Below are positions 1,890 to 27,073 of a stretch of DNA of 64,000 nt, one piece after another (positions within the stretch are counted from its first letter, which is position 1; each line of letters starts with the position of its first letter). The position numbers were made by a program, and so were the translations under genes. The notes under the pieces were generated by a model. That model was not told the origin of the DNA. It saw only the letters and a list, made by a program, of their open reading frames with translations, and did no database searches. Source of the stretch: Styela clava (lineage: Eukaryota); contig NC_135251.1 of assembly GCF_964204865.1 (NCBI RefSeq), positions 18,352,001-18,416,000 on the forward strand, given 5' to 3'.

Positions 1890-3170
1890 CATGGGTGGGC
1901 AACCTTTTTCGGCTCGCGTGCCAAAATCGGCTAAACTTAACGACAAAATTCTCCCGCGTGCCGACCAATATTAAAAACTATGCTTTGCTACTGTCAAAGC
2001 AAAAAACTTTTTGAACATGTACAGACAGATCCACTTTTTGGTAAAATATCAGTCCGTAAAGATATTTGATTACTTTTCTAATGCTGCTGCATTACCACTG
2101 ATAGAGATTTTACATTGAATTTATATTTGGTAACTGTCAAAGAAAGAAATACACCAACTACTGGTTTCATCTTTAGGGATACTCCTGTTACGAGACTTAA
2201 TAAGGTTCATAACTGAGAACAGAGATTCACAAGCATATGTAAATAAAAACATACATGAGTAATGCAGTTGCAGACACGAAAAATTTTCGGCGATGGCTTT
2301 CCAATAGCGCAATAGTTGTTTTCTGCACTTCTCTCTTGTATCCCTTTCCATGATCGTTTATAATTTTTCCGAAATCAATTTATAACAGTAAGGTAGCAAG
2401 TAACTCTAACCAACATGAGCTATACTTCATAAATCAGGCAGAAAGAAGAAAAAGGGCGGCACAGACGACATACCGTATTTCCCGGCGAATAAGTCTACCC
2501 TGTAAATAAGACGAGGCCGGTTTTTAAGCCTGAAAACATGGGTTTTTGCATATAACCTACAATAAGTCGGGGTAGTAAAATCGCATCAACATCGGAATCT
2601 CAAACTACCATGCAATGCCTTTTGAGCGGTCGCCGCGTTTGCGCATTGGTTAATATAGCCTATAATGACGTTTTTTGCAAGGTAATATTCAATCCATAAT
2701 AACTACGGGAATTCGAACTGTCTTTAAATTTTAATCTAATTGTGTTCAACTCGTGATTGCGTCCACCATAAAAGAACATTAGCTAAATCATAATAAGGCG
2801 ACACCAAAAAAATGAAAATTACCAGACTCGCCTAATAAGACGATCCCCTCAAAATCAGGCCAAAAATTTGGGTCTAGAAAAGCGACTTTTTCGCCGGGAA
2901 ATACGGTATATTACGTGAAAATTTAGCCAAATAAATGCTGCGCTCTTCCTGACAAGTTTCTCCGGACCTCTCTCTTTTGTTGCGTCATAATTTATTCCTT
3001 TGTAGCTATATGTCATGGAAGGACGGGAAGATTTGAAATAAATAACGGTTTGTCAACGAATCACAAGGAATAAAGAAACACTGAGTTTCATCAGATAATT
3101 CAGATTCTTGAAATTATTTATCTGAAGGTGAAGGATCTTGTTTTCAAGGCCTCGCTCGCGTGCCGAATAA
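1890..3170 (-). mobile_element. Non-autonomous hAT (Charlie/Buster-like) element with one end deleted
   Basis: TIR catgggtgggcaacc follows ttctagaa. Minus-strand hAT C-terminal remnant (TYACESLFSVMNLIKSRNRS). Subterminal cgcgtgcc repeats. Empty site in unit 3. Confidence 0.8.
2473..2906. mobile_element. Tc1/mariner (Tc2-like) MITE nested in the hAT element
   Basis: TIRs ccgtatttcccggcgaa / ttcgccgggaaatacgg flanked by TA on both sides. Confidence 0.9.
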
Positions 3171-6100
3171 ATAGTATCCGTACGTTATACGCATACGGAT
3201 TCACCATTGCAAAAAAATTTGAAAATTCCACTGGATGGAATATTACTAAATAATTAAATGGGCCTCTGCGCATTATTTCCACAAATACATACAGTAAATA
3301 TGAAAATTCCGCTACATCCACATTGACAGATCAAATAATCATGTTTTTCCAGCAGCACAAGAAATGCATTTGTCGTTGATTAACATCAAAATGAATGGGA
3401 AGGTAATGTGTTTGAAGACAAACGTATGATTTTCAGATAAATCCAATTTTAAACTCAGATTTAGGGATATGTTTCACAGCAAACGCGCGATAGGATATAC
3501 TACGAAATGTTCCGATATTTTGTATGAACTAAGCACAGCACTAAATTATCAGCTTCGACAAAAAAAATGACAATGAATTAGCTAACCCAATTTTTTGACA
3601 TAGACACGTACCTACAGGGGACAAAGGTCTCTTTGGAAGCAAGAAATTATCAGCTTCGAAAATAGAAAATTACGATAAATACCTAACCCAATTTACTGAT
3701 AATAACACAGCAGCTTATATTCACGTCATAAATCATTTTGACTAAATATTTTCATCAATTTAGTATCTCGGACGTTTTGGGATAAATTGGACATAGGAAA
3801 TGATTGCTTGGGTGCATAGCGATACTCTGATAATAATAGGTGCATAGAAATTTGATCGTCTTTTTTTTTTGGTGACACTACGCATTTCCACTCACAACAT
3901 CTGTTGATCATTATACCGATACAAGAGAAGAATTTTGTACGCGTATATATCGTTTGCATTAACATTGAATATTTCGCTTTTAGTTGAATATTTGTGTGTG
4001 TAGGTCAGAGTGATCTTCATATCACTGACATGTATGTCATTACAATAAACAAAATGTAAATTAGATGCTTCAGTAAAATTATGGCTGTGTTGTCGTCCGG
4101 GACCGTATTCCTTTATGGATAAATGATTTCATTTTCATCAATTAGCTATGATATGAAGACGTGGAAAGTCCAGTCTTAAGTAATAATCCTGCAATAATTA
4201 TGTACACAAGATCATAATGCCAAGAGAATTCCGAGTTCATTTAACACAAACTTTTATTTTATTTTTTTATTTCGTCATGCCGAGTTCAGATTTATACAGA
4301 TGAGCATGTTTCAACTATTACAAGAAAGGGCCATAACATGCACATAAATATTGGGTATAACATTGTTGAGTGTGTTTTCAATGGAGGCAAATTATGGGCA
4401 CCTGAACAACAATAGGGAGGGACAGTTAAGCAGCAAATTATTGAATTGAATATCCCGCAGTGTTTGTGACGAATAAATATTAGTAAACTAAACATTCTTC
4501 AAGTACTCCGCAAACAGCACAGATGAAGTTTTCTGATTGGGTGAACGCCACGATGACCTTCAACTGTTGACTATGAATAATTTCACTTTTAAAATAAATG
4601 GCTAATAACTATTCAGTCAGTAATCGTATATAACGCTCAAATTAAACAAATGAATGGATAGGCTACCCCTCTTGTATATTCATTCCTAGACTCTCCAACG
4701 TTCCAAATCGTTAATCAAATGAGAAACGTTGAAAATACATGAATGATACATAATATAGTAATCTTTATATGTACAATAGTATCTGTACGTTATACGCATA
4801 CGGATTCATCATTACAAAGAAATATGAAAATTCCACTGGATGGAATAACCCCAAGTAAATAAATGGGCCTCTGCGCATAATTGCACAAATACATACAGTA
4901 AATGTAAAAATTCTGCTACATCCACATTGACAGATCAAATAATCATGTTTTTCCAGTAGCACAAAAAATGTATTTGTCGTTGATAAACATCAAAAAGAAT
5001 GGGAAGGTAATGTGCTTGAAAAAAAAACGTATGATTTCCAGATAAAACTAATTGTAAACTCAGATTTAGGGATAGGTTTCACAGCAAACGCGCGATAGGA
5101 TATACTACGAAATGTTCCGATATTTTATACGAACTTGCTTCTACACCAAGCCTATTGAAATATACTCTAACCACAGTTTCTTTAAAGCACAGTACTAAAT
5201 TATCAGCTTCGAAAAAGAAAAATTACAATGAATTACCTAATCCAATTTTTTGACAGAGACACGTACCTACAGGGGACAAAGGTCTCTTTGGAAATACGAA
5301 ATTATCAGCTTCGAAAATGGAAAATTACAATAAATACCTAACCCAATTTACTGACAATAACATGGCAGCTTATATTCACGTCATAAATCATTTTGACCAA
5401 ATATTTTCATCAATTTAGTATCTCGGACGTTTTGGGATAAATTGAACATTGGGAATGATTGCTTGGGTGCATAGCGATACTCTGATAATAATAGGTGCAT
5501 AGAAATTTGATCGTCTTTATTTGGGTGAAACTACGCATTTCCACTCACAACATCTGTTCATCATTATACCGATACAAGAGAAGAATTTTGTACGCGTATA
5601 TCATTTGCATTAACATTAAATATTTCGCTTCTAGTTGAATATTAGTTTGTGTAGGTCAGAGCTATCTTCATATCATTTACATGTATGTCACTACAATTAA
5701 CAAGATATAAATTAGATTCTCCAGTAAAATATAGGCTTTATGAGCGTCCGGAACCGTATTGTTTCACTTTCATTAATTACCTATGATATGAAGCCATGGA
5801 AAGTCCAGTCTTGCGTATTGATTCTGCAAAAAGGATGTACCAAAGATCACAATGCCGAGAGAATTCCAGATTTATTCATGTTTCCAAACACGTACGTCTT
5901 GCTAGCTCTTATTAACCAGCATCCAAAACCAAGAAAAACATTGTTCTCAAATACATACGATTTCTGATTTTAGACCAATATAGTAACAATCTTGTTTCGG
6001 ACCAGGAGTGAATTAATTTCTATATATGTATATGTCTTTTTTCTACTGTGTTGACAATACTAATTCATTGTTTCATTGTACGAAACCATTCGTTGTATAA

Positions 6101-6235
6101 AACAATCCGTCATCAGTCTTGCATAAACGATATCTTTCTATATTTATGTAAAGTAATTCCGAAAACTCAGCGATATCAACTCACTGAATATAAAATTTCT
6201 ATTTTCTCAATTTGACGAAAATCGTTTCTCGAAGG

Positions 6236-6243
6236 TATAAATA
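6236..6243 (+). promoter_or_regulatory. Candidate TATA box of IL-17 copy 1
   Basis: TATAAATA about 100 bp upstream of the ATG at 6343. Confidence 0.5.
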
Positions 6244-6342
6244 GAATGCAAAAAATGTGTCTGAATTCAAACATCACACTATCAAGAAGAAGTAGTACTC
6301 AATTTGAGGAAATTTCTCAACGTCGATACGCACTATACAAAA

Positions 6343-8452
6343 ATGAAGGTGAAGTAAATTTTTAAGATTTATTCATCTATTCTAGATTATTTGAATATAT
6401 GCACTGTTCCACTATTGTTAATGGTGGATAATTAACGGACGAAAATTTAAAATACAATTTTTTTTTACTTTCAGGCACATCAAGTCAGCGGTGTAATTAT
6501 ACTTGTATTCCTTGCAAATTGTCAAAGATGTTTTTCACGTCGAATTTATGATGCAGAAGCTCAATTTCTATCCAGGTAAGAAAACAAATTAAAATGAGCC
6601 AACTTCGAAAAAATATTGATATGTAATGTATAAATATTTCCTCAATTTTCCAGCGAACATCTAGATGAATCAGCTGATTTCCCAAGCTACAGAGAAATAA
6701 GAAGACAGTCGGTATGTTACAAAATAGATTTTCATAAATGTAATTTGTTGTAGCGATTGTTAAAGTGGTTTTCAAGCTCTATATCAGTGGTTCTCAACCG
6801 GGGGTTCGCGAAGCATTTCCAGGGGGTCCGCGATTAAATTTAGATTTTATGAAATTATTTGCATTTTAATATCGTTTTTATTTGTAATACGCTCGAACAT
6901 TTGCTGCCTATGACAATGTGACAATAGCCTACAAAAACCTCCCGTAGACCTATTGTGACAAATACGAGTTATGACATCACAATGATAAATACGAGAACGC
7001 AGCTACAGTGATTTCAAGGGTATGTAGTCATTGGTCACATTCTCATTTGAAGCGAAGTAGCTAGTTGTTCTACAGCCAACAAAGGAGATCGTGTTGCTTT
7101 CCAAAATTTAACCAGCATGGCTAAATCGAGAAAGTACTCGGAAAGTTATCTTGAAATGGGGTTTACCTCAGTGTCAGAGGGTGGCAAGGAAAAACCGCAA
7201 TGCGTTTTATGCTATGCTGTCCTCAGCAACTTTCTCACAAATCCCTTTCTCAGTTTTGGAGCGCCATTTTGCCGTCGGACCCAAAAGTATCGATGGAAGC
7301 ATTACGTGTTATTGTCCCATTTGCCTCCACTTACCTTTGTAAAAGTGGATTTTCTGCTGTCGTCCATATCAAATGCAAGGCTCGTAACCAACTAAACGTC
7401 GAAGACGATATGCGTCTATCGTTATCGAAAACACGACCACGTATTTCAAGACTTGCTTCTGATATGCAACAGCAGAAATCCCATTAAGTGTTTTCGATTT
7501 TACAAAATAAATGAAAATGTCCACTAGTTTGGTGTTATTATTGACTTGGTTAAATCTGTATGGAACATTAGGTTGCTGTTCAAGCTATAAACTAAGTTTC
7601 AAATAAAAAACATTTGAGAGCACCAGAAGGGTCCGCAAAGACAAAAAGGTTGAGAACCACTGCTCTATATTAACAAATTTTCTCCAAGAATACTAATTGA
7701 CTGCGTAAAACAACCAAGCACTATAGCACGTCAATTGAAGTTAAGGATGCTTAGATAAAAAACATACAGCCCCGGTGCACACAACTACCTACCGTATGTC
7801 ATGTTGTAAGCGGCGCAACGCTTTTCTCTGTGGTCTATGTGGCACCTGTATGTCATATGTAGCATTCCCACTGTTGTTGATTATGCAAAATTAAACCGCT
7901 TTTGAATTATAGGCTGATTGTCCATCAATCATTGACTCGCCAAGACATTGTCCATACGTCAGAGGATACTCTGGAACGAATGATCAAGAAAATCTATCAG
8001 GAAGTAGCATTACTCCTTGGACAACAAGGTAAGTTGATCAGGTTCGATTGATCGTTTTACAAACATAAAATTTGCATTGACTGTTGTTTTAACATTACAA
8101 CGCGGGGTTGCATTATGTTACTTTATTTTGTAGTGGAAATGTAGGACAATTTTGAGAAAATATTTGAACCTTCAATTTTTCATTTTATAAAAGCATTATG
8201 TTTTGATTTGTTTACAGAATTGACATTGATCCTTTACGCTCACCCCAGGCTTTTCCAGTAGTTTGTTGTGCATGCACCCACTGCGTTGACATATCTGGTT
8301 CTGAGCCTAAAATCCTGCGAGAACATTACAGTGAGAAAGTCTACGTAAAAAAGGAAGTGAGAAGAGCAGAGGATGGATTTCGACCTCGTTATATCAAAGT
8401 AGCTGTTGGATGCACCTGTGTTCACAAACCCTTTGGTGGACATCGAATGTAA
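6343..8452 (+). CDS. IL17: IL-17 family cytokine, copy 1 (~179 aa). Exons 6343-6348, 6475-6575, 6654-6711, 7770-7793 (uncertain), 7913-8028, 8218-8452
   Basis: Signal peptide MKAHQVSGVIILVFLANC. Motifs SSITPW, DPLRSP, CCACTHC and VAVGCTCV match the IL-17 cystine-knot pattern. Splice phases are consistent. Confidence 0.88.
6785..7662 (+). mobile_element. Internally deleted hAT (Buster/Charlie) element in IL-17 intron 3
   Basis: TIRs cagtggttctcaacc / ggttgagaaccactg, perfect 8-bp TSD ctctatat. N-terminal RKYSESYLEMGF..KPQCVLC joined to C-terminal PFASTYLCKSGFS dimerization remnant. Confidence 0.95.
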
Positions 8453-8765
8453 CCTGGGACATGAAGTTTAATTTGTCGTTTACTTTTAAAATATGTTTTA
8501 AAATGTTTTGAGAATTTCATCAAATGCTTTAAATACTTTTAGGAAATGTTTTATGTACTACAGCCAACAAAGTAAAGTTTGTCTCGTGTGGCGGTTGAAT
8601 TTTATGAAGCGTGTAAACATTTCATATATTCCACAAAAAAGAATCAATTTCAAGAAAAAGTCTACAATGAATTTATTCAGACAAAGTTATTTATATGTTT
8701 GTTTTTCATATAAAAATCATGTGATTTTTGTTCTACTTTATTGCGAATAGTATTATCATTTAGTT

Positions 8766-8813
8766 CAGTGGTTTTCAGCCTTAGGCTCGCTGAACCCCGG
8801 TTGAAAGCCACTG
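8766..8813. mobile_element. 48-bp minimal hAT MITE
   Basis: cagtggttttcagcc...ggttgaaagccactg, TSD atttagtt/atttagtg. A longer version occurs at 24915. Confidence 0.8.
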
Positions 8814-10253: not shown

Positions 10254-13039
10254 CCTATAATCAGTTGCGTTTTCATACTCCAGGATGGTGACCAAACAAT
10301 GTAAACACGATCCATAGGACCAATTCATTTACTCCCTGAAAAATATAAATATTGCAATGTTTGATGGGCAGTTAATATGCTCCTAAATTATTGGGCGATG
10401 AATGGCTATGCAGCACCACATTACAGTGGTAGCAGAGTAATGCAAGCTGCTTCGATTGTCGTCAGATCTTTTTGCAAGAAAACAATATTTTAACTCGGTT
10501 TAATATTGTTTATTGCTGTTATAGTAGTTCAAGTAGTAGTCTAACCAAGCTGACCAAATTATGAGTCGGTAAAAATTCAGAAATTTCTATAAGACTTTTA
10601 TACTTTTGTGAGATGATAAATAGGGTATGCCTTTCGTGTCACTTTAAACATGGCAGGAAATATAAAAAATTTTATAAGAATTCGGGCAATTATTTCTTTT
10701 TATGTATTTTATAATAGCGTCACATGCCTAATTATATTATTTGGAATAGTTGTCCGAGAACAATGAAAAAGTGGTTTGTCGAATTAATATTGTTGGGGGG
10801 CAAATTAAGTTGTTTCGAATAGAGACAATTGTCACAAAAAGGGTAATTACATTCTTGATATGAGAAAGAATTCATAATATATACATTCACCATATTGCCG
10901 TATGAAGCGCACTGAACGTTTTCTGCCCCATTTTTTCATTGGTTGGCGGACATATCCATTAACCAATCAAACCGTGCCTTATGTGACTGTTGCATGAAAC
11001 ATAGGCGTGTTGTGATAACCGAAAACAGCCATAAACAAGAACAAACAATGATAACAGACACGATGTTTTGTGCCGGAGGATACAATACCACCGTCAATGT
11101 CAACTCGACTCATATTCACTGTTATGATTAAGATTCACAACTATTGGATGATATGCATAACGAAGTTTAAATATTAAAGAATTCACTATTTTTAATAAAT
11201 TATGAATGTACAGACATGTCATACTTTCAGATTGGAATGCCAATGAATATGAAAAATTACATTTGTATTTGAACAATTATTTTTTATGCATTGATTAATT
11301 TGCTTCACTTGACGGAAACAGTGCGAAAGTCTATACTTTACTAAACCGCTGGATTGATTTCAGCATTGTTCAACTTTTTTCTACGCATATGGGTCTTGAT
11401 TAGGGAGAGCTTGCGAGGCTGAAAATAATAACACAGGTCCGTCAATGGTTCAAGATCATAGCAAAAACATGGGGGGTGTAGATTGTTGTGATATGCCGTT
11501 ATCTTTGTATTGAAATAAAATTGGCTGTGATCAAGCGTAAATAACACCAAATAATTAAAAGGGCATATCATATGCGCATTATGCGCACAAATACATACAG
11601 TAAATATGGAAATTCCGCTACATTCATATTGACAGATCAATATTCATGTTTTTAAGCAGCACAAGAAATGTATTTGTCGTTGATAAACATCAAAATGAAT
11701 GGGAAGGTAATGTGCTAGAAGAAAAACGTATGAATTTTGGATAGCGTGAATCTAATGGCAAACTCATATTTAGGAATAGGTTTCACAAAAAACGCGCAAT
11801 AGGATATCTTACGAAGTTTTTCGACATCTTATGTGAACTTGCTTCGCACTTAGTCTAGAAATATACTCTAATCACAGCTTCTCTCTTTGAGGGGAGAAAG
11901 GGTTCTTCAGGAGCAATAAATTATCAGTTTCGGAAAGGAAAAATTACGATGAATTACCTAAACCATTTTTTTGACCATGACATGGTAGATTAAAATCACG
12001 CCATTTTGACTAATTATTATAAAGTGAACATGGGGAATGTTTGCTTGGTTACATTGCGATACCCTGATAATAATTGGTGCATAGAAATTTGATGGTCTTT
12101 ATTTTGCTGACACTACATGTTTCCACTCACATTATCTGTTGATCACTATACCGATACAAGAGAAGAATTTTGTATGGGTATATCGTTTGAAAATGAAACG
12201 CCTTATGTTCTAACTACTAATTAAATTAGTTAGATATTCGTCTGACTCCAAAACAGAAAGATTAATAGGTTACGTGTTCAGCTGAGATGTCTGTTAATTT
12301 GATATAACAGCAAAAAGATCCAAATATTTACCTGTATAGATTTTATTTCCTTGATAAATATATTACAATAACTTAAATCAAATAAACCTATTTACAATTC
12401 TAAGTTATTATTATTGACGGTTGATTAATAGAGATTATCAGATTAATTGTACTTGAGATCTCTTTGTTTGTTTGAGATCGCATTTTAAAGTATATCACAA
12501 TTCAAACAGGCTTTTCTCGATGATTCTAGAGAAATCCATGTAAAACAGGGGTGATTCATCATATCATATGAGAATTATTCACTCTGCATACAGCTATGTG
12601 TCGAAATTTCATATTAGAATGTTCTAGAACATGGGTGGGCAACCTTTTTCGGCTCGCGTGCCAAAATCGGCTAAACTTAACGACAAAATTCTCCCGCGTG
12701 CCGACCAATATTAAAAACTATGCTTTGCTACTGTCAAAGCAAAAAACTTTTTGAACATGTACAGACAGATTCACTTTTCGGTAAAATATCAGTCCGTAAA
12801 GATATTTGATTACTTTTCTAATGCTGCTGCATTACCACTGATAGAGATTTTACATTGAATTTATATTTGGTAACTGTCAAAGAAAGAAATACACCAACTA
12901 CTGGTTTCATCTTTAGGGATACTCCTGTTACGAGACTTAATAAGGTTCATAACTGAGAACAGAGATTCACAAGCATATGTAAATAAAAACATACATGAGT
13001 AATGCAGTTGCAGACACGAAAAATTTTCGGCGATGGCTT

Positions 13040-13354
13040 TATAGCATATATAATTGGTAGATAAATGTGATGTTACCGTATATTGCTAATTTGTAGATTG
13101 TCTCTGACTTGTAAGTCACCCGTTCACCCTTCAGCTTCAACGCCCACGTGAATGAAGATGCGTTAAAAATCTCTATATGTTTTTATTTGTAAATTTCCAC
13201 AACACACAGAATACAAATCTTATAACATTTATCCAGACTAGCTTAGAATGGTTTACATCGTCTTCCTCACATCGTCCTCCTTCGAAATATATCGGAGTCG
13301 TATTTATACGTCGATCGTACATCTAATTAAATACTGTAAACGTGAGCTCCGTGA
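13040..13354 (-). repeat. Inverted, diverged LTR-like segment (TATA, poly(A) signal and U5-like end on the minus strand)
   Basis: Reverse complement has TATAAATA, then ttgtattctgtgtgttgtggaaatttacaAATAAA, then caatctacaaa, ending ctata. The LTR at 17281-18008 has ttgtatttctgtatatattgtcggaattgcAATAAA, caatctacaaa and ctata in the same order. Confidence 0.65.
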
Positions 13355-15061
13355 TTTTTCTCAAAATCGTTAAACCCAGCCCAACGGAAATATTCTACTT
13401 TTGATCGGGAACTACTGGCTGCTTATCTGAGTGTCAAACATTTTCGATATGATTTGGAAGGACGTTCGTTTTTCATCCTCTCTGACCATAAACCATTGAC
13501 GTATGCCCTACACAAAAGTGCTGAAAGATCATCTCCACGACAAGTTCGTCATCTCGATTTTATAAGTCAATACACAAATGACATGAGATATATTGCTGGA
13601 AGCAGTAATGTGGTAGCCGATGCTTTGTCTAGAGCGACAATTGCCGCATTCTCACACTTGCCTACAACTCTAACCTTGTCTGACATCGCTTTGGAACAAC
13701 GTAAGGATCCGGACATTCAAAACCTGTACAATGAACCTAAAAGCATGGAATTACGATTTGTGAAACTTAGTGACGATTTACATCTACTATGCGATTCAAA
13801 ACTATCAACACTACGCCCAGTTATTCCGAAGAAATTTCGAAAACGTATATTCGATACGAATCATCAATTAAGTCACCCTGGAATTCGAGCAACTCAAGAT
13901 CTTATTCAAGCAAGATATATTTGGCCAAACATGAACATTGACATCAGGAAAATGTGCCGAGCGTGTATTCCATGCCAATCATGTAAAATTCAAAGGCACA
14001 CGATCTCACCTTTGCAAACTATCGTAACTCCAGACGAAAGATTCTACCATATCAACATTGACATTGCTGGACCTTTACCACCATCTAACCGATATAATTA
14101 TATACTTCTCGTTGTGGACAAATTTTCGAGATGGGTGGAAGCTATTCCTATCAAAGACATAACATCTGAAACGGTAGTTAAAACATTTTTTCTGTTCTGG
14201 ATTTCTAAATATGGCGTACCTGCAATCATCACCAGTGACCGTGGAGGTTGCTTTCAAAGTGTTCTATGGCAAGAAGCAATGCAATTTCTCGGTTCTCAAC
14301 ACATTTCAACTACTAGCTATCACCCAGCCTCAAACGCAGCTGTTGAAAGACAAATACGACAATTAAAAGCATCTCTGATGACTCACTGCCGGAATACTGC
14401 AGATTGGTATCAAAACTTGGGTTTAGTTCTACTTGGCATGCGAACTGCCATTAAACAGGACTTAGGATACAGTAGCGCCGAACTACTTTATGGAACACCA
14501 TTGAAATTGCCTGGAGAATTTTTCTCGACCAACCAACCGGGTATCAACACTAACCCTCAGGCGTTTATGAAACGCTTGAGCAATTTCATCAATAAGTTGA
14601 AACCAATCCAACCGAAAACACCTCTAAATAGAAAGACATTCTTATCACCAGAATTGAATACTTGCAGTCACATCTTTCTACGTGTTGACGCAGTTAGAAG
14701 ACCACTGGTACCACCTTATCAAGGACCTTTTCGTGTTATACAAAAATACGACAAGTTTTTTAAGATTGATTTTAAAGGCAAACCTACCACTGTTTCTATT
14801 GATAGAGTTAAGCCGGCTCATGAAGAAATTTTCACTCCCGATACTCAAGACATTTCTAATTCAAATACCCCAACTACTGAATCTGACGTACTAATACACA
14901 GATATAACGTACGAATATCAACCGATATTGACGACTCTTTACTTATTACGCAGAACGAGGAAACTAATAGCAATCAACAAGGTTTAGGATCAATACAATC
15001 AAGGACTCGACACGGAAGGACAACTAGACCGCCACAGAGAGACGATTATGTTTACTATTAA
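13355..15061 (+). CDS. pol: Truncated pol: RNase H C-terminal part plus complete integrase (first ATG at 13583)
   Basis: FFSK..YSTFDRELLA..SDHKPL..NVVADALSR. HHCC zinc finger, D,D(35)E (IDIAG, SDRG, VER) and GPY/F (PPYQGPF) motifs. Motif style resembles the CsRn1/Kabuki clade. The frame is closed upstream by TGA at 13352. Confidence 0.95.
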   Translation, partial: FFSKSLNPAQRKYSTFDRELLAAYLSVKHFRYDLEGRSFFILSDHKPLTYALHKSAERSSPRQVRHLDFISQYTNDMRYIAGSSNVVADALSRATIAAFSHLPTTLTLSDIALEQRKDPDIQNLYNEPKSMELRFVKLSDDLHLLCDSKLSTLRPVIPKKFRKRIFDTNHQLSHPGIRATQDLIQARYIWPNMNIDIRKMCRACIPCQSCKIQRHTISPLQTIVTPDERFYHINIDIAGPLPPSNRYNYILLVVDKFSRWVEAIPIKDITSETVVKTFFLFWISKYGVPAIITSDRGGCFQSVLWQEAMQFLGSQHISTTSYHPASNAAVERQIRQLKASLMTHCRNTADWYQNLGLVLLGMRTAIKQDLGYSSAELLYGTPLKLPGEFFSTNQPGINTNPQAFMKRLSNFINKLKPIQPKTPLNRKTFLSPELNTCSHIFLRVDAVRRPLVPPYQGPFRVIQKYDKFFKIDFKGKPTTVSIDRVKPAHEEIFTPDTQDISNSNTPTTESDVLIHRYNVRISTDIDDSLLITQNEETNSNQQGLGSIQSRTRHGRTTRPPQRDDYVYY

Positions 15062-16994
15062 GTGCCTCGCAATCTGTATGTATCTTTTTGTTTATTCGTC
15101 TAGTCTGCCATTTAAATCTGCTTTACCAACTCCAACAGTTACAGTAAACCTATGCCACCCCAATAGACCCAAAGCTGAATACTTTATTCAGAAGCCCAAT
15201 AATTGTACTAAGGAGACACCCCAAACCATTAAGCAATGCTCTGTTACGGTACATGAATTATCTTCTAGCTATACAAATATTACTTTATATGTATGTCAGA
15301 AATCTGCTACTAAATGGTCTAGTCATTATTTTTTCTTTGGTGCACATTCGAGTAAACTGACTTCTACCATGATAGAACCACCCACCCCTTTATATTGTGA
15401 AGATTGGGTACACACGTTAAAAGCTGATAATATTGGAGATTTAGAACCCACTTCCCCAGATACTTGGTCCACTCAAAACAAGGCAAAAGTTACTTATAGT
15501 TGGCCATCCTCTAGACACGGACAAGTGATCAATGCTCATTTGTCTCGTATTCAAATTTCGTATGATCCTTTTCATGGGGTAATGTTAGGTGCTTTCCCTT
15601 CAATTTCCACCTGCAACATATTAACTGGGTCATGCACGTTAGGAAGTCAAACTTTAATTTGGAAACACCACCCTTTAATTGATTGCCCTCAATACCAAAC
15701 AACTGTTACTGAAACTATTTTACATTATAATTCTTCTAATCAGATTTACCGCTTAGATTTTCCAAAACTTGGGCAATCAATCCATAACTGGGGTTCATGT
15801 GGCAAGTCAGTTAAAAGATGTTTTAAGTCTGATACTCTTTGTACCAATAATGGTTTGTTATTCGAAACGCAACAATGCATTGCACTTGATGGTTCATCCC
15901 TTTTTACTCTTAAATATCCCGCCTTTAATTACGATTATACTGTAAAGAATTTTTCAGAATCTTCTCCTCTAATTGGGTTTTTTCAAGAAAGCACTGATAG
16001 GGTTTCCGAGGTAATAAACAAATTGACAGCAGATATTAATTATTTGGAATGCCAAATTGAAAGCATTCTAACCACTAATATTAAACTCCTGTCTAAACAA
16101 TACCCCGGTAAGATCCTAAGTCAGTTACTAGGTGGGAACAGAGCAGCTATCACCGTGGGTGATATATTGACCGAAATTGAATGCCAACGTATTAACGTTA
16201 CCGTTCTTAGGAACCTCTTTTCACATGGTAAATATGCTACCCGACCTTTAGTGCACTTTATTAATAATAGCAATGAAACGATCATTGCACAAATATTCCC
16301 TGATTCTAACGCTTATGTGGGTATTCATTTTTTTGAAAATTATACGCCTGGTCGTATATTTACGTTTCAAATTGACGGTCGGTTCTATAACTACGTCAAT
16401 TATACTTTAAATCATGCGGATATGCATGTAAAATTTCTGAGACCCACATTCAAGCCTTTTGTCGACAATTTTAATCCTATCGATTACAATGAAGCATATA
16501 ACGAATTACCAAGGGGACACCAGGGTTATGATGATATTAATAATATGTTATTATCAATCAGCCACATTAACCTTATTCGAGAACGAATATTAAGTGAGCA
16601 AACCCTAACTAATGCAGATAGCACATCAGACACTGATACTGATGCTATCTCACATGAAGTGCAAGACACTTTTGTTCATGCCCTCTCCTTCATTAAGACT
16701 TCAATTTTATCAGGTATTTATATGCTCTTATTCCATTTATCTCTCATTTGGGCCACTATTTGGACCGTTTGTTTTATCAAGAAACTTTGCCCAAAACTGA
16801 GAGATGAAGGACTTCCTAGAATACAACGGCTTCGGCAATACTTGGCTGCTCGCAGGGAACAAGTGAACCCTGTTGAACCACCTCAACCTCTTGTGCAAAA
16901 CAATAGACAAGATCAGGGGGGTCAAATCTATCAATCTAGATCAAATCCCAATAATAGATCAAATTCGAACTTATACCCTAGTCTGGCAGACTAG
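15048..16994 (+). CDS. env: Envelope glycoprotein, class III viral fusogen-like (648 aa)
   Basis: Signal peptide, Cys-rich ectodomain, N-glycosylation sequons and C-terminal transmembrane helix. LSKQYPGKILSQLLG..AITVGDIL..EC and YATRPLVHF..FQIDGRFYNYVNY resemble herpesvirus gB domains III/IV. Confidence 0.85.
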   Translation: MFTIKCLAICMYLFVYSSSLPFKSALPTPTVTVNLCHPNRPKAEYFIQKPNNCTKETPQTIKQCSVTVHELSSSYTNITLYVCQKSATKWSSHYFFFGAHSSKLTSTMIEPPTPLYCEDWVHTLKADNIGDLEPTSPDTWSTQNKAKVTYSWPSSRHGQVINAHLSRIQISYDPFHGVMLGAFPSISTCNILTGSCTLGSQTLIWKHHPLIDCPQYQTTVTETILHYNSSNQIYRLDFPKLGQSIHNWGSCGKSVKRCFKSDTLCTNNGLLFETQQCIALDGSSLFTLKYPAFNYDYTVKNFSESSPLIGFFQESTDRVSEVINKLTADINYLECQIESILTTNIKLLSKQYPGKILSQLLGGNRAAITVGDILTEIECQRINVTVLRNLFSHGKYATRPLVHFINNSNETIIAQIFPDSNAYVGIHFFENYTPGRIFTFQIDGRFYNYVNYTLNHADMHVKFLRPTFKPFVDNFNPIDYNEAYNELPRGHQGYDDINNMLLSISHINLIRERILSEQTLTNADSTSDTDTDAISHEVQDTFVHALSFIKTSILSGIYMLLFHLSLIWATIWTVCFIKKLCPKLRDEGLPRIQRLRQYLAARREQVNPVEPPQPLVQNNRQDQGGQIYQSRSNPNNRSNSNLYPSLAD

Positions 16995-17270
16995 TCGAAT
17001 AGCAATGCTCATATTGTACATATATATTATACTTTAACATGATTTCTTTCTAACATGTGTTTTACGAAGAATTAAATACTTCGTGCATTTACATCAATAC
17101 CTATAACAATAATATACCTCATGTATAACTATCTCAGGAATAACTATATTTAATCTACCTTTATACAGCTTAAAATTTATTTTTTATTTTTAGTTGAATT
17201 TCATGAAAACAGCACGTCATTTCCGCCTTCTCAGCCCAAATTGCATCATTAGAATTCTCCGAACTCCTGC

Positions 17271-18008
17271 GGGGGAGTTATGTAGCCAATTAGTTGTTAT
17301 GTAACTACAAAACTACACCAAATTGGCCCAATTCGTGAGAAACTCATGAAAACCAAAATTAATTATTCCCGTTATAGCAATTATCAATTTCTCAAAATCC
17401 AATTTCAAGATTTAATAGCATTTCGGTGCCATCCCATGTAAAAATAAAATTTATTTCCAGTAATATTCCAATAACGTAAATTCGAAATATCTTGTTAAAA
17501 CCAAATTATCCACTTGAGAACAATTTTTTACATCTCATAATTGGAGTAAGTACGTGACCAGGAACACGGTGACTTGGCAATAACATGTTAATTGCTAGTA
17601 ATGAACTTCAAGAAAACACTTTTAATAATGTTTGATTATAGTGAACCGAAAGCTAACCAGAAACCGGAATGACGCGTGATTCTTTAATCGTTAATGTAAA
17701 AATCTGTTTCTTTATTCTATTTTAATTGCTTGGTAGAAAGCTATATATTCAGCAACGTGTTTTGTTTTAATCAGACTAGATTTGATCAAATTGTGTGTAC
17801 ATTGTATTTCTGTATATATTGTCGGAATTGCAATAAACTCATAAGGTGTTTTCAAACGTCTCCTTACTACAGCCGAAGGCTATCGACAGATAGACAGTTC
17901 GAGTTAACGAACGCAAGACAAAACTATTGTCAGTCAATGCTGGGGTTATAACACATAAACCAGACCAATCTACAAACAATCTATGTGTAGTGATAACTAA
18001 TCACTATA
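17271..18008 (+). repeat. Polypurine tract (17271-17277) and 3' LTR (17281-18008)
   Basis: gggggag, then tta, then TGTAG start. Internal TATA-like tatata and AATAAA. Ends ctata at the TSD. Confidence 0.8.
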
Positions 18009-18185
18009 GCTTTCCAATAGCGCAATAGTTGTTTTCTGCACTTCTCTCTTGTATCCCTTTCCATGATCGTTTATAATTTTTCCGAAATCAATTTATAACA
18101 GTAAGGTAGCAAGTAACTCTAGCCAACATGAGCTATACTTCATAAATCAGGCAGAAAGAAGAAAAAGGGCGGCACAGACGACATA

Positions 18186-18615
18186 CCGTATTTCCCGGCG
18201 AATAAGTCTACCCTGTAAATAAGACGAGGCCGGTTTTTAAGCCTGAAAACATGGGTTTTTGCATATAACCTACAATAAGTCGGGGTAGTAAAATCGCATC
18301 AACATCGGAATCTCAAACTACCATGCAATGCCTTTTGAGCGGTCGCCGCGTTTGCGCATTGGTTAATATAGCCTATAATGACGTTTTTTGCAAGGTAATA
18401 TTCAATCCATAATAACTACGGGAATTCGAACTGTCTTTAAATTTTAATCTAATTGTGTTCAACTCGTGATTGCGTCCACCATAAAAGAACATTAGCTAAT
18501 TCATAATAAGGCGACACCAAAAAAATGAAAATTACCAGACTCGCCTAATAAGACGACCCCCTCAAAATCAGGCCAAAAATTTGGGTCTAGAAAAGCGACT
18601 TTTTCGCCGGGAAAT
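18186..18615. mobile_element. Unit-2 copy of the Tc2-like MITE, right TIR clipped by a ~220-bp deletion
   Basis: gggaaat joins directly to gaaggtgaagg. Unit 1 retains 2903-3123. Confidence 0.85.
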
Positions 18616-21600
18616 GAAGGTGAAGGATCTTGTTTTCAAGGCCTCGCTCGCGTGCCGAATAAATAGTATCCGTACGTTATACGCATACGGATTCACCATT
18701 GCAAAAAAATTTGAAAATTCCACTGGATGGAATATTACTAAATAATTAAATGGGCCTCTGCGCATTATTTCCACAAATACATACAGAAAATATGAAAATT
18801 CCGCTACATCCACATTGACAGATCAAATAATCATGTTTTTCCAGCAGCACAAGAAATGCATTTGTCGTTGATTAACATCAAAATGAATGGGAAGGTAATG
18901 TGTTTGAAGACAAACGTATGATTTTCAGATAAATCCAATTTCAAACTCAGATTTAGGGATATGTTTCACAGCAAACGCGCGATAGGATATACTACGAAAT
19001 GTTCCGATATTTTATATGAACCAAGCACAGCACTAAATTATCAGCTTCGACAAAAAAAATGACAATGAATTAGCTAACCCAATTTTTTGACATAGACACG
19101 TACCTACAGGGGACAAAGGTCTCTTTGGAAGCAAGAAATTATCAGCTTCGAAAATAGAAAATTACAATAAATACCTAACCCAATTTACTGATAATAACAC
19201 AGCAGCTTATATTCACGTCATAAATCATTTTGACTAAATATTTTCATCAATTTAGTATCTCGGACGTTTTGGGATAAATTGGACATAGGAAATGATTGCT
19301 TGGGTGCATAGCGATACTCTGATAATAATAGGTGCATAGAAATTTGATCGTCTTTTTTTTTTTGGTGACACTACGCATTTCCACTCACAACATCTGTTGA
19401 TCATTATACCGATACAAGAGAAGAATTTTGTACGCGTATATATCGTTTGCATTAACATTGAATATTTTGCTTTGCTTTTAGTTGAATATTTGTGTGTGTA
19501 GGTCAGAGTGATCTTCATATCACTGACATGTATGTCATTACAATAAACAAAATGTAAATTAGATGCTTCAGTAAAATTATGGCTGTGTTGTCGTCCGGGA
19601 CCGTATTCCTTTATGGATAAATGATTTCATTTTCATCAATTAGCTATGATATGAAGACGTGGAAAGTCCAGTCTTAAGTAATAATCCTGCAATAATTATG
19701 TACACAAGATCATAATGCCAAGAGAATTCCGAGTTCATTTAACACAAACTTTTATTTTATTTTTTTATTTCGTCATGCCGAGTTCAGATTTATACAGATG
19801 AGCATGTTTCAACTATTACAAGAAAGGGCCATAACATGCACATAAATATTGGGTATAACATTGTTGAGTGTGTTTTCAATGGAGGCAAATTATGGGCACC
19901 TGAACAACAATAGGGAGGGACAGTTAAGCAGCAAATTATTGAGTTGAATATCCCGCAGTGTTTGTGACGAATAAATATTAGTAAACTAAACATTCTTCAA
20001 GTACTCCGCAAACAGCACAGATGAAGTTTTCTGATTGGGTGAACGCCACGATGACCTTCAACTGTTGACTATGAATAATTTCACTTTTAAAATAAATGGC
20101 TAATAACTATTCAGTCAGTAATCGTATATAACGCTCAAATTAAACAAATGAATGGATAGGCTACCCCTCTTGTATATTCATTCCTAGACTCTCCAACGTT
20201 CCAAATCGTTAATCAAATGAGAAACGTTGAAAATACATGAATGATACATAATATAGTAATATTTATATGTACAATAGTATCTGTACGTTATACGCATACG
20301 GATTCATCATTACAAAGAAATATGAAAATTCCACTGGATGGAATAACCCCAAGTAAATAAATGGGCCTCTGCGCATAATTGCACAAATACATACAGTAAA
20401 TGTAAAAATTCTGCTACATCCACATTGACAGATCAAATAATCATGTTTTTCCAGTAGCACAAAAATGTATATGTCGTTGATAAACATCAAAAAGAATGGG
20501 AAGGTAATGTGCTTGAAAAAAAAACGTATGATTTCCAGATAAAACTAATTGTAAACTCAGATTTAGGGATATGTTTCACAGCAAACGCGCGATAGGATAT
20601 ACTACGAAATGTTCCGATATTTTATACGAACTTGATTCTACACCAAGCCTATTGAAATATACTCTAACCACAGTTTCTTTAAAGCACAGCACTAAATTAT
20701 CAGCTTCGAAAAAGAAAAATTACAATGAATTACCTAATCCAATTTTTTGACAGACGTACCTACAGGGGACAAAGGTCTCTTTGGAAATACGAAATTATCA
20801 GCTTCGAAAATGGAAAATTACAATAAATACCTAACCCAATTTACTGACAATAACATGGCAGCTTATATTCACGTCATAAATCATTTTGACCAAATATTTT
20901 CATCAATTTAGTATTTCGGACGTTTTGGGATAAATTGAACATTGGGAATGATTGCTTGGGTGCATAGCGATACTCTGATAATAATAGGTGCATAGAAATT
21001 TGATCGTCTTTATTTGGGTGAAACTACGCATTTCCACTCACAACATCTGTTGATCATTATACCGATACAAGAGAAGAATTTTGTACGCGTATATCATTTG
21101 CATTAACATTAAATATTTCGCTTCTAGTTGAATATTAGTGTGTGTAGGTCAGAGCTATCTTCATATCATTTACATGTATGTCACTACAATTAACAAGATA
21201 TAAATTAGATTCTCCAGTAAAATATAGGCTTTATGAGCGCCCGGAACCGTATTGTTTCACTTTCATTAATTACCTATGATATGAAGCCATGAAAAGTCCA
21301 GTCTTGCGTATTGATTCTGCAAAAAGGATGTACCAAAGATCACAATGCCGAGAGAATTCCAGATTTATTCATGTTTCCAAACACGTACGTCTTGCTAGCT
21401 CTTATTAACCAGCATCCAAAACCAAGAAAAACATTGTTCTCAAATACATACGATTTCTGATTTTAGACCAATATAGTAACAATCTTGTTTCGGACCAGGA
21501 GTGAATTAATTTCTATACATGTATATGTCTTTTTTCTACTGTGTTGACAATACTAATTCATTGTTTCATTGTACGAAACCATTCGTTGTATAAAACAATC

Positions 21601-21835
21601 CGTCATCAGTCTTGCATAAACGATATCTTTCTATATTTATGTAAAGTAATTCCGAAAACTCAGCGATATCAACTCACTGAATATAAAATTTCTATTTTCT
21701 CAATTTGACGAAAATCGTTTCTCGAAGGTATAAATTGAATGCAAAAAATGTGTCTGAATTCAAACATCACACTATCAAGAAGAAGTAGTACTCAATTTAA
21801 GGAAATTTCTCAACGTCGATACGCACTATACAAAA

Positions 21836-24600
21836 ATGAAGGTGAAGTAAATTTTTAAGATTTATTCATCTATTCTAGATTATTTGAATATATGCACTGT
21901 TCCACTATTGTTAATGGTGGATAATTCACGGACGAAAATTTAAAATACAATTTTTTTTTACTTTCAGGCACATCAAGTCAGCGGTGTAATTATACTTGTA
22001 TTCCTTGCAAATTGTCAAAGATGTTTTTCACGTCGAATTTATGATGCAGAAGCTCAATTTCTATCCAGGTAAGAAAAACAAATTAAAATGAGCCAACTTC
22101 GAAAAAATATTGATATGTAAGAAATGTATAAATATTTCCTCAATTTCCAGCGAACATCTAGATGAATCAGCTGATTTCCCAAGCTACAGAGAAATAAAAA
22201 GACAGTCGGTATGTTACAAAATAGATTTTCATAAATGTAATTTGTTGTAGCGATTGTTAAGGTGGTTTTCAAGCTCTATATCAGTGGTTCTCAACCGGGG
22301 GTTCGCGAAGCATTTCCAGGGGGTCCGCGATTAAATTTAGATTTTATGAAATTATTTGCATTTTAATATCGTTTTTATTTGTAATACGCTCGAACATTTG
22401 CTGCCTATGACAATGGGACAATAGCCTACAAAAACTATTTTGATTTACCTCCCGTAGACCTATTGTGACAAATACGAGTTATGACATCACAATGATAAAT
22501 ACGAGAACGCAGCTACAGTGATTTCAAGGGTATGTAGTCATTGGTCACATTCTCATTTGAAGCGAAGTAGCTAGTTGTTCTACAGCCAACAAAGGAGATC
22601 GTGTTGCTTTCCAAAATTTAACCAGCATGGCTAAATCGAGAAAGTACTCGGAAAGTTATCTTGAAATGGGGTTTACCTCAGTGTCAGAGGGTGGCAAGGA
22701 AAAACCGCAATGCGTTTTATGCTATGCTGTCCTCAGCAACTTTCTCAAAAATCCCTTTCTCAGTTTTGGAGCGCCATTTTGCCGTCGGACCCAAAAGTAT
22801 CGATGGAAGCATTACGTGTTATTGTCCCATTTGCCTCCACTTACCTTTGTAAAAGTGGATTTTCTGCTCTCGTCCATATCAAATGCAAGGCTCGTAGCCA
22901 ACTAAACGTCGAAGACGATATGCGTCTATCGTTATCGAAAACACGACCACGTATTTCAAGACTTGCTTCTGATATGCAACAGCAGAAATCCCATTAAGTG
23001 TTTTCGATTTTACAAAATAAATGAAAATGTCCACTAGTTTGGTGTTATTATTGACTTGGTTAAATCTGTATGGAACATTAGGTTGCTGTTCAAGCTATAA
23101 ACTAAATTTCAAATAAAAAACATTTGAGAGCACCAGAAGGGTCCGCAAAGACAAAAAGGTTGAGAACCACTGCTCTATATTAACAAATTTTCTCCAAGAA
23201 TACTAATTGACTGCGTAAAACAACCAAGCACTATAGCACGTCAATTGAAGTTAAGGATGCTTGGATAAAAAACATACAGCCCCGGTGCACACAACTACCT
23301 ACCGTATGTCATGTTGTAAGCGGCGCAACGCTTTTCTCTGTGGTCTATGTGGCACCTGTATGTCATATGTAGCATTCCCACTGTTGTTGATTATGCAAAA
23401 TTAAACCGCTTTTGAATTATAGGCTGACCCAAAAGTATCGATGGAAGCATTACGTGTTATTGTCCCATTTGCCTCCACTTACCTTTGTAAAAGTGGATTT
23501 TCTGCTCTCGTCCATATCAAATGCAAGGCTCGTAGCCAACTAAACGTCGAAGACGATATGCGTCTATCGTTATCGAAAACACGACCACGTATTTCAAGAC
23601 TTGCTTCTGATATGCAACAGCAGAAATCCCATTAAGTGTTTTCGATTTTACAAAATAAATGAAAATGTCCACTAGTTTGGTGTTATTATTGACTTGGTTA
23701 AATCTGTATGGAACATTAGGTTGCTGTTCAAGCTATAAACTAAATTTCAAATAAAAAACATTTGAGAGCACCAGAAGGGTCCGCAAAGACAAAAAGGTTG
23801 AGAACCACTGCTCTATATTAACAAATTTTCTCCAAGAATACTAATTGACTGCGTAAAACAACCAAGCACTATAGCACGTCAATTGAAGTTAAGGATGCTT
23901 GGATAAAAAACATACAGCCCCGGTGCACACAACTACCTACCGTATGTCATGTTGTAAGCGGCGCAACGCTTTTCTCTGTGGTCTATGTGGCACCTGTATG
24001 TCATATGTAGCATTCCCACTGTTGTTGATTATGCAAAATTAAACCGCTTTTGAATTATAGGCTGATTGTCCATCAATCATTGACTCGCCAAGACATTGTC
24101 CATACGTCAGAGGATACTCTGGAACGAATGATCAAGAAAATCTATCAGGAAGTAGCATTACTCCTTGGACAACAAGGTAAGTTGATCAGGTTCGATTGAT
24201 CGTTTTACAAACATAAAATTTGCATTGACTGTTGTTTTAACATTACAACGCGGGGTTGCATTATGTTACTTTATTTTGTAGTGGAAATGTAGGACAATTT
24301 TGAGAAAATATTTGAACCTTCAATTTTTCATTTTATAAAAGCATTATGTTTTGATTTGTTTACAGAATTGACATGGATCCTTTACGCTCACCCCAGGCTT
24401 TTCCAGTAGTGTGTTGTGCATGCACCCACTGCGTTGACATGTCTGGTTCCGAGCCTAAAATCCTGCGAGAACATTACAGTGAGAAAGTCTACGTAAAAAA
24501 GGAAGTGAGAAGAGCGGAGGATGGATTTCGACCTCGCTATATCAAAGTAGCTGTTGGATGCACCTGTGTTCACAAACCCTTTGGTGGACATCGAATGTAA
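21836..24600 (+). CDS. IL17: IL-17 family cytokine, copy 2. Exons 21836-21841, 21968-22068, 22151-22208, 23280-23303 and/or 23918-23941, 24061-24176, 24366-24600
   Basis: Same structure as copy 1. ORF track 24373..24600 shows CCACTHC and VAVGCTCV. Confidence 0.88.
22282..23172 (+). mobile_element. Unit-2 copy of the intronic hAT element
   Basis: Same TIRs and TSD ctctatat as 6785..7662. Confidence 0.95.
22790..24065 (+). repeat. 638-bp direct tandem duplication (22790-23427 / 23428-24065)
   Basis: Junction aggctga|cccaaaag with 2-bp microhomology GA. The two copies look identical. Confidence 0.92.
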
Positions 24601-24914
24601 CCTGAAACATGAAGTTTAATTTGTCGTTTACTTTTAAAATATGTTTTAAAATATTTTGAGAATTTCATCAAATGCTTTAAATACTTTTAGGAAATGTTTT
24701 ATGTACTACAGCCCAACGAAGTAAAGTTTGTCTCGTGTGGCGGTTGATTTTTATGAAGCGTGTAAATATTTTATATATTCTACGAAAAGGAATCGATTTC
24801 AAGGAAAAGTCTACACTGAATTTATTCACACAAAGTTATTTATATGTTCGTTTTTCATATAAAAATCATGTGAATTTTGTTCTACTTTATTGTGAATAGT
24901 ATTATTATTTAGTG

Positions 24915-24996
24915 CAGTGGTTTTCAGCCCTTTTGGTGGAGCAAAACCCCAATGAAACATTCCAGAGGCTCGCTGATCCCCGGTTGAAAGCCACTG
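24915..24996. mobile_element. 82-bp hAT MITE
   Basis: cagtggttttcagcc...ggttgaaagccactg with perfect TSD atttagtg. Confidence 0.85.
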
Positions 24997-25532
24997 ATTT
25001 AGTGTGTATTTAAGCTATTATTTATCAATACATATATTTTTTTCTGCGTTTAATCATTGACTATTTTACCAAACGAGTGTTATAATAAATAATGTAAGTG
25101 TGTTAAAATATGTTAATCTCAGAGTTTTTGAAAATGTCGAAATGTTTTGCGATAAAATTAATATGAAGGAAACACTTAGAATGTGTCAAAATGTACCCAT
25201 TATTTGGCTCTTTGCGAGATTTTGAAACAAAATTAAAGGCAAATAAAGAAGAATCTTCTATTTCTTCATCAGTTTGGACTATTTATTATATTTGGATGTT
25301 CGATTTATAATGGTTTCTATATCACAGCTGTTCACATAACCAGTATTAACGTTTATACCGCTAATCGTTCGTTACAGATCACAAAAGAAACAAGACGTTT
25401 ATGTTTGTCAAATAAAATAGGAAAGAATATTTTGTATCGTAATAGCAATCTTTCAATAGTATAATTGAAGTGTAATAAAATTACGTGAAGTGTAAATACT
25501 TATAAACTTTGATTAGCAGTGATTGCGATCAT

Positions 25533-25646
25533 TGTTCATTGTTGATAGTTGTAAAATGCTTGTCTGAAGAAGTCTGACCTCGGTCAGACGAAACGTTACA
25601 GAAATATATTTGTGTTCGTGTGCAGCAAGTCTCTTGAATTGAATAG
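25533..25646 (+). mobile_element. Short Penelope-like element terminal fragment
   Basis: ~114-bp insertion absent from unit 1 (gcgatcatatttgttt near 9330). Contains a hammerhead motif. Confidence 0.6.
25560..25601 (+). ncRNA. Minimal type I hammerhead ribozyme motif
   Basis: TTGT-CTGAAGA-A-GTCTGACC-TC-GGTCAGAC-GAAAC-GTT-ACAG: catalytic core, perfect stem II, palindromic AACGTT stem III, short stem I. Confidence 0.7.
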
Positions 25647-26788: not shown

Positions 26789-27073
26789 TTTACTTATCGA
26801 TCTTGATCGGTAAGTATGTTGATAGGTATTTGTCTGTTTGGCTGTTGGACACACGCGATATCTCACGAAAGCGAGGTTGAATCCGCTCCAAATTCTGCAT
26901 GTGTATTCATCATATATCGGATCAGAAGCCTATTGATTTCGGTTGAATTATGTCGAATAATTAGCGATGTATTATTTAATTAGTGATGGGACACGCAGTG
27001 TCGCTATTGATTCATAGCGAAAGATACACGCCACTAGATCCATAAGTCGGCGGTTTCTGATCGCTATCTCGTT
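26789..27073 (+). mobile_element. Possible non-autonomous Helentron/DINE-like insertion
   Basis: Inserted in a T-run relative to units 1 and 2 with no TSD. 5' hairpin tacttatcgat...atcggtaagta followed by a gtctgt-like tract. Confidence 0.45.

Follow-up and report, generated by a model that had tools for sequence, protein, structure and literature searches.

We analysed a 64,000-nucleotide stretch of the Styela clava genome (assembly GCF_964204865.1, contig NC_135251.1, positions 18,352,001 to 18,416,000; C2:18352001-18416000 in the coordinates of our searches of the ca. 377-Mb genome), referred to here as the window. It carries a 4969-bp insert at 13040-18008, with ends TATAG...CTATA, in which parts of two families of long terminal repeat (LTR) retrotransposons, here called A and B, are joined so that both ends are outward-facing U5-type ends. 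The insert is flanked by a 4-bp target site duplication (TSD), and the corresponding site in another unit of a segmental duplication is empty (Table 1), the flanks of empty site and insert being 98.4% and 99.3% identical between the units. A preliminary description of this DNA had reported the duplicated GCTT and its single counterpart in the near-identical unit, the terminal motifs, a right end made of a polypurine tract (PPT) and a complete LTR, open integrase and env frames and a lack of gag and reverse transcriptase, all of which our analysis bears out, together with the view that integration took place in one piece via two U5-type ends. The duplication units occupy window positions 200-8780, 10917-24929 and 25156-28362, with 98-99% identity between the near-identical ones. 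An exact 640-bp tandem repeat is present at 22788-24065 and an older duplication copy (81-93%) lies further right.

The larger part of the insert, bases 13353-18008 (4656 bases), is 99.1-99.4% identical to all six long family A copies compared and reaches from within pol to the end of the 3' LTR. The remaining left part is a reversed piece of a family B LTR, with AATAAA at 13182-13187 and TATAAA at 13303-13308, both on the minus strand, so that the B promoter faces outward from the element; the U3/R/U5 borders of this segment were inferred from these motifs. The left tip is a U5 end, since position 585 of the B LTR directly precedes the primer binding site (PBS) in family B. The preliminary description had recognized a reversed U5-type LTR end fused to the middle of RNase H, which stands, but had put it at 315 bp of a diverged LTR, to be aligned with the right LTR as a check. 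It belongs to family B, measures 317 bp and is not a diverged copy of the right LTR: the local alignment score of its reverse complement with the right LTR was 36, no better than chance, as 300 shuffles gave a mean of 30.5 (standard deviation 4.6, maximum 52). The mirror termini extend over only 5 bp, with 13 of the first 40 bases in agreement, and in place of two direct LTRs the element has one LTR and a reversed foreign half-LTR. Compared with the usual B form at 49 fetched loci, the segment at 13340-13356 has one extra base near the junction; an 11-base match to the reversed A leader makes a brief extra template switch possible there, or else a slip.

The pol frame is open for 568 codons and is entered within RNase H (Pfam RT_RNaseH profile positions 35-105), at a point equivalent to residue 521 of 1088 in a long A copy (A position 3748). 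The integrase, with its first methionine at 13583, shows the HHCC motif, a DD35E triad (D236/D295/E331) and GPF, and the element lacks gag, protease and reverse transcriptase. The env frame (14988-16994) is open for 668 codons, and the env-like protein has 18 cysteines, 10 N-glycosylation sequons and one hydrophobic segment near residues 553-578. It matches Pfam glycoprotein B (gB; PF00606) with E 2.6e-5 and 24 bits, below the curated cut-off of 43, and 11 of 12 weak PDB matches are to gB (best E 0.0012). PF00606 is also carried by four of the five closest env homologues, and database labels name Styela clava for four of the five. In frame comparisons with three other A copies, 2-5 synonymous and 6-9 non-synonymous differences per gene were counted and no sign of purifying selection was seen, the numbers being small; these counts indicate that the open frames reflect youth and not selection.

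Env is normally expressed from a spliced RNA in which a GT donor in the A leader, absent from the window element, is joined to the AG at window position 14954, as seen in four of four env-only copies. These copies, with both LTR regions, are found at C5:9.53, C1:15.51, C1:29.25 and C13:1.23 Mb (L012, L013, L014 and L017), and A position 1063 (GT donor) is joined in them to 5348 (AG acceptor). They are retrotransposed spliced env mRNAs and thereby fix the splice sites. Elsewhere in pol, at window 13734-14218, 483 bases bounded by CT..AC are missing from contigs of two runs that are presumably RNA; this gap would be a minus-strand intron of family A and is absent from the other two runs.

The full-length gag-pol-env parent that the preliminary description had proposed to seek, and the family owning the left LTR, were both found. 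Family A is a Ty3/Gypsy LTR retrotransposon, with direct LTRs, a tRNA-Trp PBS, a PPT, TSDs and the domain order protease, reverse transcriptase, RNase H, integrase. Its long elements, up to 8.4 kb, contain gag, pol and env between 728-bp direct LTRs (TGTAG...CTATA) with 4-bp TSDs, and some have long open frames whereas others are broken. Pfam domains in pol of one long copy follow the order RVP, RVT_1, RT_RNaseH, Integrase_H2C2 and rve, with GPF at residue 977. A genome search with the whole insert gave 58 matches; among the 40 of 425 candidates that were scored, bases 1-4969 are covered by the window alone and seven other places match at 98-99% from insert base 314 up to or almost up to its end. 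Several A loci have unusual structures. A long copy at C2:30922345-30931647 (L061; TSD GATC) has part of its leader replaced by 1.3 kb of antisense B, which includes the B PBS and an LTR half, and by a 64-bp A U5 piece. Two tandem A LTRs with a 13-base PBS copy between them share one TSD at C10:8606900-8608369 (L091). At C9:3393852-3401038 (L074/L100) lies an A fragment that includes a reversed LTR, with 39 bases of tRNA copied at the joint; it has a U3 end as its right tip and internal A sequence as its left tip, and yet the same 4-mer is seen by eye on both sides.

Searching with the first 317 bases of the insert, with 40 of 267 candidates scored, gave 41 genome matches of 90-100% identity, and a 21-base B motif matched the genome 175 times versus 0 for the control; B was sampled in part, with 100 of the 175 motif matches listed. 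Family B elements are 2.5 kb long, with direct LTRs of 575-590 bp that are 99-100% identical within elements, TATAGC...GCTATA ends, a PBS, a PPT and a 4-bp TSD. The LTRs are direct in all 10 fetched pairs, with TATAAA at position 316 and AATAAA at 438, and the longest frame has 87 codons in one copy. Family B is thus a non-autonomous LTR retrotransposon without coding capacity, of the kind labelled terminal-repeat retrotransposon in miniature (TRIM) or large retrotransposon derivative. It differs from a typical TRIM in its larger size and in sharing no significant sequence with A beyond termini and primer (BLASTN of B against A gave short matches only, with E at least 0.018), and yet it recombines with A.

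Both families have TATAG ends, 4-bp TSDs and tRNA-Trp priming. All 17 solo LTRs checked have a 4-bp TSD and none a 5-bp TSD. The 18-nt PBS following A and B LTRs is complementary to genomic tRNA-Trp with CCA added, and it is matched at 11-13 of 18 bases by long A copies and only at the first 7 in a row by the B reference copy. Direct-orientation template switches between A and B within TSDs are common (C1:22.49, C2:30.92, C9:7.56, C14:9.17 and C16:17.94 Mb), which shows co-packaging of A and B. In our reading B is the non-autonomous partner and A the autonomous helper, although B may have another helper among the more diverged env families of 74-77% identity to A env. Such env-like sequences are located at C14:21.3-21.4 Mb, C16:18.96-18.99 Mb, C20 and C42, in regularly spaced copies that are apparently tandem arrays. 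In older B-like subfamilies (L163, L168, L169, L171, L174, L175 and L184) the LTR combines a U3 of B type with a U5 end of A type, a mixture suggesting that the two families have exchanged ends over a long time. At several inserts (L113, L115, L116, L117; L021), reverse transcriptase copied 30-50 bases of the tRNA-Trp primer. These partial tRNA copies were recognized by DNA search and not by ARAGORN or Rfam, and they mismatch the gene at the same two places, bases 19 and 40 of the copy, which fits modified bases of the mature tRNA. A large cluster in which tRNA-Trp and tRNA-Cys genes alternate is located at C10:6.86-6.93 Mb (L200, L202).

With a 91-base query spanning the window junction, end-to-end coverage was obtained in the window alone (40 of 200 candidates scored), and the junction is single-copy. 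The window element is a one-off recombinant with identified A and B parts, one of the two readings offered by the preliminary description. The type of event, however, recurs at nine independent loci. We carried out a census using A U5 ends (65 matches), A U3 ends (73 matches), 39 partnerless B ends and one 10-kb stretch, some end windows covering only 1-2 kb. A total of 82 left-right end pairs within 10.5 kb were tested and 62 share the flanking 4-mer (chance 0.008), comprising 54 normal U3/U5 pairs (one locus counted twice), 4 U5/U5 and 4 U3/U3 pairs; the 20 pairs without a shared 4-mer fall outside this classification. Together with one insert found by hand, the eight from the automated census yield nine inverted-end inserts, five U5/U5 and four U3/U3 (Table 1). 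They have nine different TSDs and all their junctions differ; four junctions were counted and occur at one locus each among the fetched loci, and the others are unrepeated in the end censuses. Of the 33 inserts that lie within a TSD and have an A end on one or both sides, 8 are inverted, about one in four, a rate given for A and not for the partly sampled B. Some A/A and B/B inserts have perfect inverted ends of 43-100 bp, and none of these was copied. Other composites were rejected: a short reversed B U5 piece on A at C4:4.009 Mb, with its right end lost and no TSD; one at C8:24.117 Mb, joined U5 to U5 inward and with its outer end lost; and C10:17.20 Mb plus four other single-ended pieces, which have no partner end with a matching 4-mer.

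Table 1. Features of the window insert (window positions) and inverted-end inserts across the genome.
Feature	Position	Strand	Basis or description
Left TSD copy, GCTT	13036..13039	.	comparison with empty site
Reversed U5-side half of family B LTR (585-bp LTR, positions 585 to 269)	13040..13356	-	matches to B copies; U5 attachment end at 13040
B/A junction, 4-base overlap GATT common to both	13353..13356	.	alignment to B and A
Family A pol 3' part: last two thirds of RNase H and whole integrase	13355..15061	+	frame, Pfam, motifs
Acceptor site for env splicing, with pyrimidine run and AG before 14954	14926..14954	+	env-only A copies
Env-like open reading frame, 648 aa from first Met	15048..16994	+	frame, weak Pfam/PDB matches
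Polypurine tract	17269..17280	+	position constant in all long A copies
Complete family A 3' LTR, 728 bp, TGTAG...CTATA; U5 attachment end at 18008	17281..18008	+	A copies
Right TSD copy, GCTT	18009..18012	.	comparison with empty site
Empty target site, other unit of segmental duplication	2296..2299	.	single GCTT
U5/U5 insert, B/A	window		4969 bp, TSD GCTT
U5/U5 insert, B/A	C14:14216335		2135 bp, TSD GTGT
U5/U5 insert, B/A	C19:862527		6856 bp, TSD GACC
U5/U5 insert, B/A	C16:11.50 Mb		306 bp, TSD AGCT
U5/U5 insert, A/A	C16:12854717		263 bp, TSD GCGC
U3/U3 insert, B/B	C16:6368205		TSD GAGA
U3/U3 insert, A/A	C5:12960096		TSD CAGT
U3/U3 insert, A/A	C2:20647687		TSD CGCT
U3/U3 insert, B/A	C17:16976550		TSD CAGG

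We consider it likely that the window element is a dead-end reverse transcription product of a mixed A/B particle, in which nascent cDNA strands of the same polarity primed each other and integrase inserted the product. The top strand of the element begins with B minus-strand sequence from the U5 end and the bottom strand with A minus-strand sequence from the U5 end. That the strands of U5/U5 inserts start as minus strands and those of U3/U3 inserts as plus strands follows from the standard model in the summary form given in PMC7197481. Such a particle would contain RNA of the autonomous A and the non-autonomous B, and both minus strands would be primed by tRNA-Trp. The A minus strand would stall in RNase H after ca. 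4.7 kb and the B minus strand after 317 bases, and their 3' ends would then anneal at microhomology and each be extended on the other, resulting in a DNA duplex in which either end is a U5 attachment site. The A integrase would accept both ends because A and B ends share TATAG. In the mirror event, two plus-strand strong-stop DNAs would give rise to U3/U3 inserts, and the mismatched PBS of both families may stall strand transfer and thus raise the rate of such joins.

The structure of the other inserts is in agreement with several of these steps. A full tRNA copy is located at the joint of the B/B U3/U3 insert, which is the natural end of a plus-strand strong-stop DNA and supports ends set by reverse transcription intermediates. 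In the two smallest U5/U5 inserts, the arms (B 585-367 and A 642-728 at C16:11.50 Mb; A 728-616 and A 572-728 at C16:12854717) lie downstream of the TATA boxes, as fits strong-stop DNA. In the C19 insert, a ca. 1.1-kb B minus strand changes over to A at 4316 and continues as far as 2681, and the right A arm ends at 4310, as if both strands had used one A RNA, although this is a single case.

Several observations weigh against mutual priming within a particle or are neutral to it. The B arm of the window element reaches ca. 47 bases past the TATA box and is longer than strong-stop DNA, so that a prior first strand transfer would be required. The joints show little or no overlap (4 bases in the window, 7 at C16:12.85, short and imperfect at C14, none at C16:11.50), and the donor B copy was not found, the best match of the left segment among the fetched copies of the partly sampled family being only 96.5%. 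Further, none of the records listed from four read runs on 12500-18500 crosses the junction, and the end product alone cannot separate mutual priming from integration of two donors followed by host end joining. In the latter case, one integrase complex would insert truncated A and B U5 ends at the same target and the host would seal the inner ends at microhomology, leaving an identical product, which has a 4-bp TSD, an attachment end on either side and little or no overlap at the joint, and which comes in U5/U5 and U3/U3 forms. Two-donor integration occurs in vitro, and such repair would fit an unassigned 34-base spacer found at one joint of the C19 insert as well as the one-base insertion near the window joint. 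However, the joints coincide with ends of reverse transcription intermediates, as described for the tRNA copy of the B/B insert and for 4310/4316 at C19, and a full-length A arm is present in none of the nine inverted inserts. We regard this route as possible but rather unlikely.

The same read records could also be taken to favor an assembly misjoin of an A copy and a B copy. The four runs contain loose ends of B type at 13349 and contigs of A type that begin at 13353. In case of run X21, alleles of the window copy are absent at 14616 (18 of 18 reads differ), 14848 (18 of 18) and 15981 (13 of 13), and the animal concerned was probably without the insert. Since the sequenced animals seem to lack it and the records listed make up the smaller part of the rows, the reads neither support nor refute the junction. 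Matching TSDs in agreement with the empty site would not result from a misjoin, and eight other loci follow the same logic with other TSDs, which makes it very improbable. The TSD, the empty site and the eight sister events argue that the junction is real, though unvalidated by reads.

The window element cannot retrotranspose again as it has no sense 5' LTR, PBS, env splice donor, gag, protease or reverse transcriptase, and no PBS-like motif was detected on either strand. Judged from its frame, the integrase might in principle be produced by read-through transcription via the methionine at 13583. The second reading offered by the preliminary description was a mobile family standing midway between enveloped retrotransposons and DNA transposons with terminal inverted repeats (TIRs). 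Such a Ginger-like family would be moved by its own integrase, acting on the two inverted ends. The element indeed has a whole integrase frame with its own start between outward-facing attachment ends, a layout matching the Ginger1 precursor that Bao et al. 2010 propose in the pertinent section of PMC2836005. Yet the junction is found in a single copy, the outcome that the preliminary description had named in advance as speaking against mobility, and none of the nine inverted inserts is repeated, even those with inverted ends of 43-100 bp. Moreover, the terminal match is restricted to 5 bp, no sense promoter was identified in the element, no selection signal was seen, alleles of the window copy do not appear among the reads of a different DNA run, and no Ginger feature is present beyond the shared integrase fold. 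We consider this reading highly doubtful, and the copy number in itself largely disproves an intermediate family. Little more credit can be given to a bolder version, in which same-polarity joining is a frequent side route and the window element a live proto-Ginger with an integrase expressed from a neighboring promoter, able to excise or move inverted-end units and having second copies in other animals. What we observed of this version is how often the side route occurs.

A comparison with Ginger1, as portrayed in the relevant parts of PMC2836005, shows both common and differing features. Like Ginger1, the window element has inverted ends that enclose an integrase of Gypsy type, with zinc finger, DDE and GPY/F, as well as a 4-bp TSD and a length of ca. 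5 kb; these integrase features are inherited from family A, to which they are 99% identical. In contrast, the TIRs of Ginger1 measure about 40-270 bp versus the 5-bp match found here, and its target is CCGG or CCGT/ACGG instead of GCTT, none of our nine TSDs being CCGG or CCGT. Ginger1 is also multi-copy with the same ends at different sites, whereas the window element is single and carries a whole LTR and env. The C-terminal OTU or Ulp1 domain of Ginger1 gave no Pfam match at E 0.1 in the window element, and the YPYY motif was not seen by eye upstream of the zinc finger. In the same sections, Bao et al. describe the chain of events from Gypsy to Ginger1 as unclear and suggest two opposed LTRs flanking an integrase. 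A rearrangement after integration, the route they suggest, in which B inserted in reverse into an integrated A and deletions then removed the 5' half of A and most of B, is extremely improbable in spite of the nested insertions and deletions common at A/B loci, since the TSD abuts the B U5 end and equals the empty site exactly, and a deletion would have to stop precisely at the TSD and B terminus at several loci.

Family A corresponds to the gB-env Ty3/Gypsy elements (errantiviruses in the wide sense) as characterized in the main sections of PMC13524379, having gag, a protease to integrase pol with GPY/F, a putatively gB-like env, direct LTRs, a tRNA PBS and a PPT. The window element differs from these in being a 3' A fragment to which a reversed LTR piece from a second family is attached. 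Elements of this type have been reported from tunicates, and the supplementary entry for Styela clava in that survey, based on a 340-Mb assembly, gives pol-env matches and no intact copies, whereas the 377-Mb genome used here contains young long A copies. Aberrant cDNA has been described in the form of HIV-1 proviruses with inversions or asymmetric LTRs (overview in PMC9278108) and of inversion circles formed by auto-integration in Arabidopsis particles (PMC7197481, as summarized there). These cases are similar in that errors of strand transfer or integration lead to inverted or asymmetric genomes. As presented in these overviews, they involve one family and internal inversions or unintegrated circles, whereas the products found here are integrated and heritable, have the same end type at both tips and can combine two families. 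No description of integrated two-family U5/U5 products was found in the open-licence literature, although older retrovirus and Ty1 work may cover them.

In conclusion, the window insert is a real, recent, single-copy chimera belonging to a known class of errors, unusual in keeping whole integrase and env frames and in being one of nine such events, which as a set likely expose the mechanism. A single inverted-end insert with a TSD need not be a DNA transposon, which calls for caution in annotation, and the A/A and B/B inserts with perfect inverted ends resemble ready-made miniature inverted-repeat transposable elements. Our findings also provide genomic evidence for pairing a non-coding LTR family with its helper despite almost no common sequence. 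The layout of the hypothetical Ginger1 precursor exists here inside one TSD, and the sister inserts show that it can originate in one step. The first step of a route from Gypsy to Ginger1 is thereby observable and countable in this genome, even though the window element itself looks like a dead end.

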